From a virus (lineage: Duplodnaviria; Heunggongvirae; Uroviricota; Caudoviricetes), in IMG/VR virus record IMGVR_UViG_2671181111_000008: DNA of 5,053 nt; one strand, given 5' to 3'. The notes under the pieces were generated by a model, which made no database searches, was not told the DNA's origin, and saw nothing but the letters and a program-made list of their open reading frames with translations. Shown in pieces: positions 62 through 4,078 of the stretch. A program made the position numbers and the translations under genes. Positions within the stretch are counted from its first letter, which is position 1, and each line of letters opens with the position of its first letter.

Positions 62-82
62 TTACCGTAATGATGGCGACAT
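62..82 (-). pseudogene. Probable remnant of an SAR-endolysin (R21-like) start: ATG overlapping the holin stop, then MSPSLR and TAA
   Basis: Minus strand reads GAA-TAA-TG: ATG at 82..80 overlaps the S stop (84..82) in a TAATG arrangement, as in lambdoid S-R junctions. It translates M-S-P-S-L-R and then stops at TAA (64..62). From memory, phage 21 endolysin begins MPPSLRK. Downstream sequence does not continue an endolysin-like frame. Confidence 0.35.
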
Positions 83-297
83 TATTCACCTCTCGCAGCC
101 TTACGCTTGTCTTCTCTGATTTTGAAGTACAGATTTGTCAGATAAGTCAGGAAGCCCAGAACCAGACTCCCCAGTACACCAATCGCAGCCCACTGTGACG
201 GACTGACCTGATCAAGCCACTGTAAAAACCAGTAGCCAGCACTGCCTGCGGAGGTGCCGTAGGCAATGCCCGTTGAAATTTTGTCCATGGATTTCAT
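82..297 (-). CDS. S: Class II holin / pinholin, S21-like (71 aa)
   Basis: 71-codon ORF with ATG at 297..295 and GGAGG Shine-Dalgarno (309..305) 7 nt upstream. N-terminus MKSMDK gives the Met1/Met4 dual-start motif. Two hydrophobic segments and a charged C-tail ([13 protein letters not shown]). The sequence matches my recollection of the phage 21 pinholin. Position downstream of Q and tRNAs fits a lambdoid late operon. Confidence 0.85.
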
Positions 298-404
298 AGC
301 CTCACCTCCGCAAATAACGGATGGCGTAGTTTTACACTGAGAAATGAAAGGGATTTGAAAAGAAAAAACCGCAAAAGCGGGCGAAACGATATATACAGTA
401 AGGA

Positions 405-457
405 AAGCACTCTATCCAACAAACCACTCACAGTTAATCGGAATAAAAGCAGAGTGC
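405..457. repeat. Perfect 9-bp inverted repeat (aagcactct / agagtgctt) with 35-nt spacer
   Basis: Arms at 405-413 and 449-457 are exact reverse complements, read directly from the sequence. Confidence 0.6.
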
Positions 458-530
458 TTATGAATGATCGCCTGCCCGAAGGTTAGTATTTCTGCACAGC
501 AATTTTGCAAAAAAAAGCGATCATTCATAA
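458..530. repeat. Perfect 14-bp inverted repeat (ttatgaatgatcgc / gcgatcattcataa) with 45-nt spacer containing an A8 run
   Basis: Arms at 458-471 and 517-530 are exact reverse complements. The spacer 472-516 contains aaaaaaaa at 509-516. Confidence 0.65.
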
Positions 531-537
531 CTTAAAC

Positions 538-583
538 GTCTTTCAGTCACTCCGGGATTTCCCATCATCGCAGACTGAAAGAC
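538..583. repeat. Perfect 11-bp inverted repeat (gtctttcagtc / gactgaaagac) with 24-nt spacer, immediately 3' of the tRNA-Gly-like gene
   Basis: Arms at 538-548 and 573-583 are exact reverse complements. It sits 7 nt beyond the CCA end of the tRNA at 590. Confidence 0.6.
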
Positions 584-589
584 TCTAAC

Positions 590-656
<67 letters not shown>

Positions 657-817: not shown

Positions 818-894
818 TGGACCGCCACCGGGGACTCGAACCTCGCACACTCAACTTAAAGGGTTGACGCTCTTTCCTGATGAGCTAGTGGCGG
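818..894 (-). tRNA. tRNA-like gene with atypical anticodon loop CCUUUAA (C33; anticodon positions read UUU); isotype uncertain
   Basis: Reverse complement folds as a cloverleaf: perfect 7-bp acceptor stem (CCGCCAC/GTGGCGG, C1-G72), D-stem GCTC/GAGC with 9-nt loop containing GG, anticodon stem TCAAC/GTTGA, 5-nt variable loop, T-arm CGAGG-TTCGAGT-CCCCG with one A-C mismatch, discriminator U, encoded CCA at 820..818. Position 33 is C rather than the near-universal U. Confidence 0.6.
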
Positions 895-895
895 T

Positions 896-971
896 TGGTG
901 GCCCTTGCTGGATTTGAACCAGCGACCTGGCGATTATGAGTCGCTCGCTCTCACCACTGAGCTAAAGGGCC
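896..971 (-). tRNA. ileZ: tRNA with CAU anticodon, tRNA-Ile2 (lysidine-type, ileZ-like) rather than tRNA-Met
   Basis: 76-nt cloverleaf: acceptor GGCCCTT/AAGGGCC, D-arm GCTC-AGTGGTGA-GAGC, anticodon loop CUCAUAA (U33, anticodon CAU), T-arm GCTGG-TTCAAAT-CCAGC, discriminator A, encoded CCA. It closely resembles my recollection of E. coli tRNA-Ile2 (ileX), and lambdoid Q-to-S regions typically carry ileZ. Confidence 0.8.
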
Positions 972-980
972 GAGCGCAGG

Positions 981-1009
981 ATAATAACGTTACGAAATCA
1001 ATGTTGCAA
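981..1009 (-). promoter_or_regulatory. Candidate sigma70 promoter for the tRNA cluster (TTGCAA -17- TATTAT)
   Basis: On the minus strand, -35 TTGCAA (1009..1004), 17-nt spacer, -10 TATTAT (986..981), then a GC-rich discriminator cctgcgctc before the tRNA 5' end at 971. The predicted start lies only about 4-6 nt upstream of the mature tRNA. Confidence 0.4.
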
Positions 1010-1069: not shown

Positions 1070-1100
1070 GTGGCACAAAAAACCCGCTTGTGGGCGGGTT
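1070..1100 (-). terminator. Rho-independent terminator (candidate tR-prime), bidirectional in appearance
   Basis: Stem aacccgc (1081-1087) / gcgggtt (1094-1100) with 6-nt loop. On the minus strand it is followed by UUUUUUGUG; on the plus strand by ttgtttgctttt. It lies 70-100 nt downstream of the Q-like stop. Confidence 0.6.
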
Positions 1101-1152
1101 TTGTTTGCTTTTGCCATCACGTACAAAATCGGCAAAATATCAGATTTGCATG

Positions 1153-1181
1153 AATATATGCCTTTCAATCTACTTTTGCAA
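1153..1181 (-). promoter_or_regulatory. Candidate late promoter (pR-prime-like), TTGCAA -17- TATATT, overlapping the Q-like stop codon
   Basis: On the minus strand, -35 TTGCAA (1181..1176), 17-nt spacer containing the TAG stop (1172..1170), -10 TATATT (1158..1153). The predicted start near 1146 would give a short transcript ending at the terminator at 1070-1100, the geometry expected of a Q-modified late promoter. Confidence 0.45.
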
Positions 1182-1880
1182 CACTTTGCTTTGAAAATGC
1201 CGTCTTTTTTTTGAACGTGTTCTCATTACAAACAATAAAGCCTCACTATCCAGTCGGTGAAAAATGTGTTTCATTACAACCCAGTGACCAGTAAATGTTT
1301 TGGACCAGTTTTTGGTTGTTACTCCCGCCAGTAATGCCAGCTCCTGATATTCATAACCTTCCCCACCAACCTGGTATTCATAACCTTCCCCACCAAAAAG
1401 TTCTGCTTTTACTGCCTGCGCCGCCAGCCAGATTAATTTTTTCAGGCGTTCCTGCGTTTTCCCTGCAATTTTTCTGGTACCGGATTGAGCATTAAATTCA
1501 TTCCACGCCCACTGTGTTATCGCGATCTGATATTCCCAACAAATACTCCCGCTGTAACACCACAACAACCAGGCTTTATGATGTTCTTCAAGAGACAGAA
1601 CAGCCCGCCGCCACGATGATGTCGAAAACTCAACCGGACTGACCAGAGGAATTGACGTCCCCTTCGCCAGCGATTGCTTTCCCGGGATTGGTGGATTATC
1701 CCGCGTTATCATTTTTCCAGTCACTTCATCGCGGTACCGGATTTTTTTACGCCTGTAACGCCCTGTATCGAACATGGCATTCTCTTGCCAGGCTTCAAGC
1801 TGACCTTTTGTTGCCCCACTCAAATCAGCGGTGGCGATAATGAGCTGCTCACGCACAAACTGTAAATACTGGTTATTCAT
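1170..1880 (-). CDS. Putative late-gene antiterminator (Q-like, about 236 aa), assigned mainly by synteny
   Basis: Long ORF immediately downstream of rusA and upstream of the candidate late promoter, terminator, tRNAs and holin, which is the canonical Q position. The ORF track starts at a GTG (1886); the ATG at 1880..1878 overlaps the rusA TGA stop as ATGA and is the more likely start. I do not recognise a specific Q-family motif, so the function is inferred. Confidence 0.55.
   Translation of the reverse strand: MNNQYLQFVREQLIIATADLSGATKGQLEAWQENAMFDTGRYRRKKIRYRDEVTGKMITRDNPPIPGKQSLAKGTSIPLVSPVEFSTSSWRRAVLSLEEHHKAWLLWCYSGSICWEYQIAITQWAWNEFNAQSGTRKIAGKTQERLKKLIWLAAQAVKAELFGGEGYEYQVGGEGYEYQELALLAGVTTKNWSKTFTGHWVVMKHIFHRLDSEALLFVMRTRSKKRRHFQSKVLQK
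1343..1396. repeat. Tandem 27-bp direct duplication (26/27 identical) inside the Q-like CDS, encoding GGEGYEYQ twice
   Basis: Copy 1 at 1343-1369 (cctgatattcataaccttccccaccaa) and copy 2 at 1370-1396 (cctggtattcataaccttccccaccaa). In frame, giving GGEGYEYQV-GGEGYEYQE in the protein. Confidence 0.9.
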
Positions 1881-3302: not shown

Positions 3303-3581
3303 TTACCTCCAGATCCGTTGCTGGAATGTGCAGGACGGACGCGGTGGCCGTTCGGAATAAGGGAGCCTGACGAAGATTATCCAGTGACGATAATCGAGAC
3401 TGAGGGCTTTCTTAATCTCGTATCCGTGTCTGCGGTAGCGCTGAATCAGCCATTCAGCCTGTTCTTCGGTGCAGGGGTCGTGCTGATACCAGTCAGATTT
3501 GAATGCATGAGAACGCCGCCCGTGCCTGCTGGCAGGGGCGGCAGAGTTATCCGAATTGTAAAATTTGGTATCGTGCGCCAT
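3303..3581 (-). CDS. Hypothetical prophage protein (92 aa); the ORF-track 135-aa version is over-extended
   Basis: The track ORF starts at a GTG (3710) upstream of, and spanning, the hok terminator (3653-3680), so its first 43 codons are likely untranslated. The first ATG after the terminator is at 3581..3579. The stop TAA (3305..3303) sits 1 nt before the downstream GTG. No recognisable motif; the SD is weak. Confidence 0.45.
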   Translation of the reverse strand: MAHDTKFYNSDNSAAPASRHGRRSHAFKSDWYQHDPCTEEQAEWLIQRYRRHGYEIKKALSLDYRHWIIFVRLPYSERPPRPSCTFQQRIWR

Positions 3582-3652
3582 CTGTTTTCTCTGCTGGCGC
3601 AGCAGGTGCCAGTTGTTCAGGCTGACGGATGGATTGTAAACCAGAACGACCA

Positions 3653-3680
3653 GAAAAAACAAAACCCGCCGAAGCGGGTT
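3653..3680 (-). terminator. Rho-independent terminator of the hok transcript (UUCG tetraloop hairpin plus U-tract)
   Basis: Minus-strand RNA: stem aacccgc / gcgggtt (3680..3674 and 3669..3663) closed by a UUCG loop, followed by UUUUGUUUUUUC (3662..3651). Confidence 0.7.
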
Positions 3681-3748
3681 AAGTGCGGGTGCGTTGAGGA
3701 TGCCTGACACATCAGCGGTGGCGAGGGATTTCTCCCCCGCCGGGTCTC

Positions 3749-3904
3749 TTACTCCTCAGGTTCGTAAGCTGTGAAGACAGCGACCTCCGTCTGGCCGGTT
3801 CGGATTCGTACCTCGCAGAGGTCTTTCCTCGTTACCAGTGCCGTCACTATGACGGTTAAACAGATGACGATCAGGGCGATTAACATCGCCTTTTGCTGCT
3901 TCAT
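3749..3904 (-). CDS. hok: Hok/Gef-family type I toxin (51 aa), HokD/RelF-like
   Basis: Translation MKQQKAMLIALIVICLTVIVTALVTRKDLCEVRIRTGQTEVAVFTAYEPEE matches my recollection of E. coli HokD/RelF. Single N-terminal TM segment and conserved Cys. ATG at 3904..3902 preceded by AAGGAG about 9 nt upstream. The 70-aa track ORF is an in-frame upstream extension. Confidence 0.9.
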   Translation of the reverse strand: MKQQKAMLIALIVICLTVIVTALVTRKDLCEVRIRTGQTEVAVFTAYEPEE

Positions 3905-4078
3905 AGCCTGCTTCTCCTTGCCTTTCGGCACGTAAGAGGCTAACCTACATGTGTTCAGCATGGATTGAGCCTCAGATTAATGTTAAGCGTCTTGCAGGAC
4001 GCGTAATGTTAACTGGGGCTTTTCTCTATCTGCCTTTTGGTGTTCATGCCTGAGACAGATAGCCTCAAGCACCCGCAG
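3905..4078 (-). promoter_or_regulatory. hok mRNA 5' leader (tac-like 5' end, 5' stem-loop, upstream translation-initiation region)
   Basis: Minus-strand sequence gcttgaggctatctg...cagatag...agcctcttac...gcaaggagaag...ATG parallels the plasmid R1 hok leader as I recall it. The 5' segment (about 4078..4063) is complementary, with one bulge, to the 3' UTR segment (about 3700..3685), the fold-back arrangement characteristic of hok mRNAs. Confidence 0.5.
3975..4075 (+). ncRNA. Candidate Sok-like antisense RNA region (ends not determined)
   Basis: By analogy with hok/sok, the antitoxin RNA is transcribed antisense to the hok leader, starting near the upstream initiation region and running toward the hok mRNA 5' end. 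The plus strand here carries weak -10 candidates (TAATGT at 3978-3983 and 4004-4009) and the complement of the hok 5' stem-loop. I could not fix a clean promoter or terminator. Confidence 0.3.

Follow-up and report, generated by a model that had tools for sequence, protein, structure and literature searches.

A conserved three-hairpin RNA element between the tRNA genes and the lysis cassette of lambdoid prophages, and its possible role as a tRNA-operon trailer

We analysed a 5,053-nt stretch of DNA from a virus of the class Caudoviricetes (IMG/VR record IMGVR_UViG_2671181111_000008; hereafter the window), which covers the late-control region of a P27-like lambdoid prophage, with the genes of that region on the minus strand, and we focus on an element of about 190 nt, composed of three consecutive hairpins (HP1, HP2 and HP3), that lies between its last tRNA gene and its holin gene. 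Minus-strand gene order is DUF968, RusA and the antiterminator Q (1886-1170, Pfam PF06323), followed by an array of tRNA genes and then by a holin S gene of the P21 type (82-297, minus strand, Pfam PF04971), the first late gene downstream. A promoter scan placed a pR'-like promoter (TTGCAA-17-TATATT) at 1181-1153 on the minus strand, and a terminator scan placed a strong bidirectional terminator downstream of it, at 1102-1079. The interval from the final tRNA gene, tRNA-Gly, to the holin is 292 nt long. In Escherichia coli FDAARGOS_943, a copy of 340-592 is 100% identical, and the annotated order there is Q, tRNA-Ile, -Lys, -Thr and -Gly, a class II holin, rrrD and a P27-family terminase.

The tRNA array is preceded by a sigma-70 promoter-like site (TTGCAA-17-TATTAT; 981-1009, minus strand) that ends 9 nt before the first tRNA and is putatively the operon's own promoter. 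Related arrays that begin with Ile(CAU) have TTGCNN-17-TAT(T/C)AT 9 nt before the tRNA. Of 57 distinct related arrays, 25 satisfy a strict rule for this arrangement (background, 3.8%), and most of the remainder are near-misses at the same place. The first gene of the window's array is a tRNA with a CAU anticodon (896-971, minus strand; found by ARAGORN, with an Rfam tRNA score of 72.5 bits), annotated as tRNA-Ile by PGAP in an otherwise identical locus, L005 (L numbers are our labels for related loci). A second, tRNA-like gene follows (818-894, minus strand; ARAGORN, Rfam 44 bits), with anticodon UUU in the loop CCUUUAA and a constant body of the tRNA-Arg(UCU) type. Most of a tRNA-Thr(UGU) and the 5' end of the tRNA-Gly are hidden by a masked run of N (139 nt, 657-795); the matching stretch of L005 is 66 nt long and comprises the rest of tRNA-Thr and the start of tRNA-Gly, so either the mask does not preserve length or it covers an extra tRNA of about 73 nt, and the window's array may hold one more tRNA than can be read. 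The visible 3' part of tRNA-Gly(UCC) spans 590-656 (minus strand; anticodon loop CUUCCAA; Rfam tRNA 41.6 bits at 601-655), with its CCA ending at 590, and the same gene is annotated as tRNA-Gly(tcc) in L005 and in the Shiga toxin (Stx) 2e phage phi467. HP1 starts 6-7 nt past this CCA, a distance that is fixed in essentially all arrays that have the tRNA.

The anticodon loop of the second tRNA-like gene differs between otherwise near-identical prophages (the window and loci L006-L125): it is CCUUUAA here (Lys-UUU, with C at position 33) and CUUCUAA (Arg-UCU) in others, and some relatives carry loops of 5-6 nt (UAAAU, UUAAU, UUUAU, CCAGGU) for which ARAGORN gives Phe, Leu, 'Stop' or an undetermined identity. 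To judge from these sequences, the gene could be decaying, or its loop could be under diversifying pressure.

An inverted-repeat search of 290-620 returned exactly three repeats, all 100% complementary: arms of 9 nt at 405-413 and 451-459 (37 nt between them), of 14 nt at 458-471 and 517-530 (45 nt) and of 11 nt at 538-548 and 573-583 (24 nt). The first two have bases 458-459 in common, so their helices abut. Among 5,000 dinucleotide-preserving shuffles of 298-592 (counting perfect repeats with arms of 9 bp or more and loops of 3-60), three or more such repeats appeared in only 1, and any repeat of at least 11 bp, of which the window holds two, in 9. The minus-strand RNA from 592 to 298 is predicted to fold at -94.8 kcal/mol (z = -4.85), compared with z = -2.8 for the plus strand. 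An earlier note on this DNA, made from the letters alone, had described three perfect inverted repeats of 9, 14 and 11 bp between the last tRNA and the holin, in an interval free of coding capacity, and had proposed minus-strand folding and conservation of the repeat arms in related phages as checks; the repeats and both flanking genes are as it said, the folding is strand-biased, and the arms are retained in relatives through compensatory changes. No conserved open reading frame (ORF) lies between tRNA-Gly and the holin: the sole ORF (412-528, minus strand, 38 amino acids) is broken in relatives by changes in poly-T length and in phage HK639 meets a stop after 10 codons, and a hidden small protein was rejected on this lack of conservation.

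Evidence that the element acts as RNA comes from an alignment of 19 diverged representative copies. RNAalifold recovered seven helices with 60 pairs in total, of which 12 show compensatory double changes, and standard pairs occupied 98.6% of cells, compared with 39-47% after partners were slid by 1-3 columns; neither the observed paired fraction nor the covariation score was reached in any of 500 shuffles. Most compensatory changes divide the two main clades and so represent few independent events, with the exception of the HP3 outer stems. G·U pairs outnumbered A·C pairs by 161 to 9, and when the mirror image of the structure is placed on the opposite strand, the share of paired cells drops to 85%. 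The fold is therefore compatible only with an RNA read from the minus strand, on which the tRNAs and the late genes also lie. Together, these results show that the three palindromes are three independently folding domains of a conserved minus-strand RNA, as predicted from covariation and pairing statistics, and they favour the first of the functions suggested earlier, RNA structures on the late transcript.

HP1 (583-538, minus strand) consists of an 11-bp stem extended by G571·U549 and C570-G550, an internal loop of GAUGA (569-565) opposite GA (552-551), and an apical 4-bp stem (564-561 with 556-553) capped by a variable loop of 3-4 nt. The internal loop follows the kink-turn sequence pattern, with G571-C570, GAU, G566 A565 and U564 GGG opposite CCC G553, G552 A551 and G550 U549; that is, a canonical stem, a 3-nt bulge (GAU) and tandem G·A/A·G pairs, then U·G and G-C pairs. 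This sequence fits a kink-turn-like loop. Because the first scan pattern forced the HP1 loop, loci were re-collected through HP3; among the loci so collected that have HP1, the loop was identical in 99 and differed in five others, four of which are intact variants. In these four, the G·A positions are unchanged, the flanking U·G pair has become U·U or G·U, and the 3n position varies only between G and U. The 5' strand of the loop (AUGAUGG) resembles box C (RUGAUGA) and the 3' strand (CGGA here, CUGA in L193) resembles box D, which accounts for a weak match to a C/D small nucleolar RNA model that covers exactly this stretch; unlike box C/D RNAs, HP1 has neither a guide sequence nor a second C'/D' pair. 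E. coli has no known kink-turn-binding protein of the L7Ae type. The apex of HP1 (GAUGAUGGG...CCCG) also locally resembles the variable region and T-arm of tRNA-Gly (GAUGAUGCGGG...CCCG), and from this likeness HP1 may derive from a partial duplication of tRNA-Gly. Separately, a deletion in the viral contig L009 (1908-1990) fuses the 5' half of tRNA-Gly, retained through the anticodon stem, to the HP1 loop at CAGCC|TGCGATGATGGG.

HP2 (530-458, minus strand) has a basal stem of 15-16 bp that closes a three-way junction, from which helix P2a (513-506 with 496-489, loop AAAUUGCUG) and helix P2b (482-481 with 476-475, UUCG loop) project. One relative (L114) keeps the base of the stem and has a different top, and two others (L154 and L147) keep P2a with other sequences. 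The last two also bear on a promoter inside HP2 (TTGCAA...TACTAA), which we considered as a cause of loop conservation and rejected: the hexamer is swapped and the helix kept, so the constraint acts on RNA. HP3 (459-405, minus strand) comprises an outer stem (459-450 with 414-405), a 7-nt bulge and an inner core (442-437 with 420-415 and 435-432 with 425-422) whose conserved, G/U-rich 3' side reads GGGUGGUUUGUUGGAU in relatives and GAGUGGUUUGUUGGAU here. The core (UCCGAU-U-AACU...GGUU-U-GUUGGA) is almost invariant, and the outer stem has been replaced by at least five unrelated sequences among relatives, with three pair types at one position across unrelated contexts.

The element is present in 536 of 5,426 complete E. 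coli genomes, approximately 1 in 10; all of these copies are chromosomal, at 1-3 places per genome, and only the adjoining tRNA-Gly is annotated. Such low copy numbers do not match a dispersed repeat of the repetitive extragenic palindromic or miniature inverted-repeat transposable element type, and neither a repeat search nor nhmmer found a second copy within the window. Four E. coli phages, including phi467 (99%), carry it at 98-99% identity, phage HK639 at 76%, and Salmonella phage Fels-1 as decayed remnants. In IMG/VR, scanned with an exact pattern, there are at least 120 loci. A scan of species-representative genomes yielded true copies only in E. coli and Shigella flexneri; 11 other matches, in unrelated and mostly uncultured lineages (largely actinobacterial metagenome-assembled genomes), were judged to be chance, and a BLAST search of the phage collection for an HP3-only variant gave no match. 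The prophage context is the same in every full or tRNA-linked copy that we examined, while isolated HP3 also occurs in another type of operon leader. A literature search with three sequence strings of the element returned no matching paper, and the element is named by no annotation, Rfam family or searchable paper. A structured RNA of this size in roughly one in ten complete E. coli genomes, and also in Shigella, would add to an interval, Q to holin, that already supplies Shiga toxin, phage tRNAs and several regulatory small RNAs (sRNAs) to pathogenic strains.

The hairpins are separable modules. With nhmmer profiles of the three domains and of tRNA-Gly, pattern-collected loci (approximately 165 bearing the element) had the architectures Gly-HP1-HP2-HP3 (116 loci), HP2-HP3 (11), HP1-HP2 (8), HP3 alone (8), HP1-HP2-HP3 (7), Gly-HP2-HP3 (6) and Gly-HP1-HP2 (3), counts that are biased by the exact patterns used to gather the loci and are not population frequencies. 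The order of clustered modules was never permuted, except for an HP1-like match 196 nt downstream of HP3 in L181. When the tRNA side has been replaced (L141-type loci, L186), HP2-HP3 or HP3 remain with the lysis-cassette side, and HP3 alone occurs directly after pR' and its terminator tR' in other Q-bearing phages. In HK639, all three hairpins are retained beside mere remnants of tRNA-Gly and a neighbouring tRNA-Asn, which argues for selection apart from the tRNA. Downstream of the element there are at least four unrelated holin families, so the element is independent of the genes that follow it. At one further locus (L035, 6680-6936, minus strand), tRNA-Gly and HP1 are followed by a different long hairpin, with unrelated internal hairpin, and by a terminator, with no HP3; the architecture is preserved there without sequence similarity.

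Downstream, the window has a terminator-like hairpin with a U-run (GCCCGCUUUUGCGGUUUUUUCUUUUC; 357-382, minus strand), approximately 20 nt after HP3 and 60 nt before the holin start, which is likely, from its sequence and position, to be the 3' end of a tRNA-plus-hairpin transcript made without Q. The copy here is a common weak allele with a 4-bp CCGC/GCGG stem, reading GCGGUU in place of GCGGGC; relatives have GCCCGC/GCGGGC, or unrelated strong terminators, at the same position. A terminator-like hairpin with a T-run was found in 50 of the 64 distinct HP3 contexts (78%), starting at a median of 28 nt after the HP3 motif, in line with the earlier suggestion of partial termination before S at about 365-384. 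Terminator sequences are unrelated in different clades and their position is kept, and we therefore argue that ending the RNA there is selected. None of the three repeats was itself called by the terminator scan (their loops are 24-45 nt long, with no conserved U-run after them), and no alternative pairing between the hairpins and the terminator was seen; an attenuation role, one of the earlier proposals, consequently finds no support. Several phages stack two to four terminators in the Q-to-holin leader, and insertions and insertion sequence (IS) elements land around the element (L026, L052, L186). The separable modules, the tie to the 3' end of tRNA-Gly, the promoter-like site of the array and the kink-turn-like loop had all escaped the earlier note.

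The element is tied to the 3' end of tRNA-Gly, and in most cases a terminator closes it before the lysis cassette begins. The reading that we prefer, tentatively and by analogy with known systems, is that a prophage tRNA operon with a promoter of its own carries the element as its structured 3' trailer, which is released as a stable, stand-alone non-coding RNA. Given the apparent sigma-70 promoter of the array, the transcription unit in a lysogen without Q would comprise promoter, tRNAs, HP1-HP2-HP3 and terminator, and the hairpin RNA would be the operon's 3' external transcribed spacer (3'ETS). Processing by RNase E and RNase P that frees tRNA-Gly would leave an RNA of approximately 220 nt, which its three compact domains and terminator hairpin could make long-lived. 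After induction, Q-modified polymerase from pR' would read through and so place the hairpin RNA in the leader of the late transcript, which continues into the lysis and morphogenesis genes. The released RNA may act alone as a regulator, sponge or protein ligand, as do 3'ETS-leuZ and the sRNAs of the same prophage slot. Candidate recognition surfaces are, in HP1, the kink-turn-like loop; in HP2, the junction and the loop of P2a; and in HP3, the inner core.

Known systems offer partial parallels to such a trailer RNA. The element lies where a tRNA 3'ETS would, on the tRNA strand between the 3' end of the last tRNA and a terminator, and the closest parallel is 3'ETS-leuZ, which comes from the E. 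coli tRNA operon glyW-cysT-leuZ and is an sRNA sponge with one known function, pairing with RyhB and RybB. Both are on the same strand as the last tRNA, between it and the operon terminator, and end in the terminator hairpin, and the window RNA, by analogy, would be freed by tRNA 3' processing; however, 3'ETS-leuZ is short, whereas the window RNA would be about 220 nt long, with three elaborate domains, and is prophage-borne, and the two have no sequence similarity, nor did we find a partner sRNA for the window RNA. STnc100/PasD, PasA/PasC, AgvB/AsxR and StxS share the Q-to-holin slot of lambdoid prophages and an end at an intrinsic terminator, and STnc100 is also in the late-gene orientation, but the window RNA is larger and is tied to a tRNA 3' end. 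Rfam searches of the window gave no match to STnc100 or other sRNAs of this slot, while the same tool detects STnc100 strongly in Fels-1. Pas sRNAs have been described as directly adjoining the holin/lysozyme operon in prophages of enteropathogenic E. coli; we rejected them as relatives, as the printed PasA sequence is unrelated and PasA is on the other strand. In the tRNA cluster of T4, the stable RNAs C and D (species 1 and 2) are structured non-tRNA molecules cut from the same precursor as the tRNAs, and are likewise co-transcribed with phage tRNAs, although T4 is a different type of phage and its RNAs lie inside the tRNA cluster of a lytic phage, not before a lysis cassette. If a stable tRNA-trailer RNA is indeed made, it would be a second, far more elaborate example beside the single well-studied 3'ETS regulator and a probable kink-turn RNA in an organism for which, as noted, no corresponding protein is known. 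Whether the element acts in trans or in cis, tests would be cheap, as HK639 is a plaque-forming phage for which lysogens are available.

Several observations weigh against this trailer reading: the free species of about 220 nt is one that we infer; no target or partner was found; the terminator of the window, a hairpin with a U-run, is weak, with a stem of only 4 bp; clades differ in the linker that joins HP3 to the terminator, the usual location of Hfq-type seeds; and arrays that begin with tRNA-Thr (the phi467 type), as well as HK639, have no promoter-like site by simple scan, so the RNA there may come only from pR'. Moreover, HP3 alone stands directly before a coding gene, with no terminator and 20-25 nt from the start codon, in L143 and L176/L195/L197, an arrangement more like that of a cis-acting leader.

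The possibility that the hairpins are a cis-acting leader of the Q-dependent late transcript, acting on the RNA that carries them, is the foremost alternative, although we consider it rather unlikely; the two readings are not exclusive. Excision of the tRNA would give a new 5' end, and the hairpins, or RNase III or RNase E sites in them, could stabilise or process the late mRNA, with HP3 possibly serving as an operator for an RNA-binding factor. Such a role suits the constant placement of the element downstream of pR'/tR' and ahead of the first late gene in phages of differing Q type and holin family, the start of HP1 just 6-7 nt from the tRNA 3' end, the retention of HP2-HP3 or HP3 on the lysis side after tRNA-side swaps, the terminator-free HP3 copies and the absence of a separate promoter in HK639. 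It sits less easily with the strict conservation of loop, bulge and junction sequences, as 5'-end protection needs a stem only, and with the retention, in most lineages, of a terminator immediately behind HP3, as expected at the 3' end of an RNA and not in a leader; unrelated holins and ribosome-binding regions also make specific long-range pairing with the first late gene unlikely. Acting in cis, the element would serve as a conserved control of lysis-cassette expression. As a separable hairpin, HP3 may also be of use in recognising operon leaders of enterobacterial phages not yet characterised.

The contexts in which HP3 alone occurs extend beyond late leaders. In L176, L195 and L197, IMG/VR contigs from a different kind of phage, the HP3 core has another outer stem, of 13 bp (CAGGCAUGCAYACC...), and lies 20 nt ahead of an early-type operon, in which a gene for a DUF4406-like protein comes first and one for an exonuclease-like protein next.

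A broader proposal, to which we give still less weight and which again leans on analogy, is that the element represents a new class of multi-domain phage non-coding RNA, built from a kink-turn domain, a three-way-junction domain and HP3 as a widely shared leader hairpin, whose modules are recognition sites for specific host or phage factors, a small enterobacterial counterpart of GOLLD and ROOL acting in trans on tRNA metabolism, host RNA regulation or anti-phage defence, with the HP3 core (UCCRAY-UAACC...GGGGUGGUUUGUUGGRU) being a new signal in both late and early phage operon leaders. GOLLD and ROOL, both Rfam families, are large, ornate RNAs of phages and prophages, often beside tRNA genes, and the window element is likewise a phage-borne, multi-domain structured RNA adjoining tRNA genes; they are, however, several-fold larger and from other taxa, and the window RNA has no Rfam match to them.

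It is improbable that the hairpins form only a termination insulator, in which they would pause or slow polymerases from the tRNA promoter or from tR' leakage so that the following terminator silences the lysis genes. Leakage into the holin gene is presumably selected against, a terminator comes next in 78% of distinct contexts, stacked terminators occur in several phages, and the weak terminator of the window copy could need help. On the other hand, HP1-HP3 have long, complex loops and no U-tracts and were not called as terminators, simple strong terminators of the kind already found in relatives would suffice, and an insulator explains neither the conservation of loop sequences nor HP3 copies without any terminator.

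DNA-level palindromes, whether sites for dimeric proteins (another suggestion of the earlier note), sites of recombination or module exchange, or cruciforms, are very improbable. The arms are perfect in the window copy, and mosaic boundaries of lambdoid phages are known to fall in this region, with insertions and IS elements nearby, but the tolerance of G·U over A·C pairs and the deficit of pairing on the other strand effectively rule this explanation out, and arms that covary while loops stay fixed are the opposite of what a protein-binding palindrome would display. Hardly credible at all is an origin of the palindromes by chance, or as a scar left by the loss of cargo such as stx. These ideas have only the position in a cargo-rich interval in their favour and are contradicted by the shuffles (1 in 5,000), by conservation in 536 genomes and in diverged phages, and by phi467, the closest Stx phage, where stx2e lies upstream of tRNA-Thr and tRNA-Gly and the hairpins are intact, so that the interval from tRNA-Gly to the holin is not, as had been supposed, the stx slot in this phage family.

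Several other known RNAs were considered and set aside. A whole-window Rfam scan (E ≤ 1) found nothing in 298-592, and the three matches obtained with Rfam 15 for 290-600 alone (E ≤ 10) scored 13-15 bits, well short of their gathering scores; neither ARAGORN nor the Rfam tRNA model found a tRNA or tRNA-like cloverleaf in the element. There was no model match to a T-box or other riboswitch, or to a hammerhead or hepatitis delta virus-like ribozyme, and HP1 lacks the three-way core of a hammerhead and has GAGU where GAAA is needed. An antiterminator RNA of the put type was also rejected, on size, domain number, location and logic. HK639 is among the phages that use put RNAs, and these too are phage-encoded structured RNAs in an operon leader; however, put is described as approximately 70 nt long with two stem-loops, just downstream of early promoters, whereas the element is about 190 nt, has three domains and lies in a late leader, where antitermination would be lethal because the terminators that follow must work in a lysogen. 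IpeX of the E. coli K-12 prophage DLP12 was discarded as well: nmpC lies on the opposite strand, and the late region of DLP12 gave no nhmmer match to HP1, HP2 or HP3. A likeness to GcvB, a shared 10-mer (GGUCUGCGAU), was judged compatible with chance.

Other non-coding RNAs and small genes lie nearby in the window and its relatives. STnc100-type sRNA modules also occur in the Q-to-holin leaders of HK639 (L001, 3240-3470; recognised by a shared sequence motif only, not by model search) and of Fels-1 (L201; three Rfam matches of up to 138 bits at 1897-2110, 2311-2433 and 3434-3652), each ending in a terminator; with such modules adjoining the element, the leader looks like a string of non-coding RNA cassettes. 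In the window itself, the pR'-like promoter and bidirectional terminator (1077-1181, minus strand) would together yield, just after Q, a short constitutive RNA, about 70 nt long and comparable to lambda 6S RNA or StxS, and weak isrJ-like and isrK-like Rfam matches cover the same stretch. Within the Q ORF, a direct repeat of approximately 21 nt with a period of 27 (about 1355-1408, minus strand) doubles the peptide GGEGYEYQ near the C-terminus; the ORF is intact here (238 amino acids) but annotated as frameshifted at the same locus of FDAARGOS_943. Finally, a complete hok/sok-type toxin-antitoxin module is present at 3749-4074 (minus strand), with sok matched by its Rfam model at 3899-4074 (118.9 bits) and a Hok/Gef protein of 70 amino acids encoded at 3749-3961, and beside it lies another weak isrK-like match (3659-3740, 27 bits, E = 0.006).

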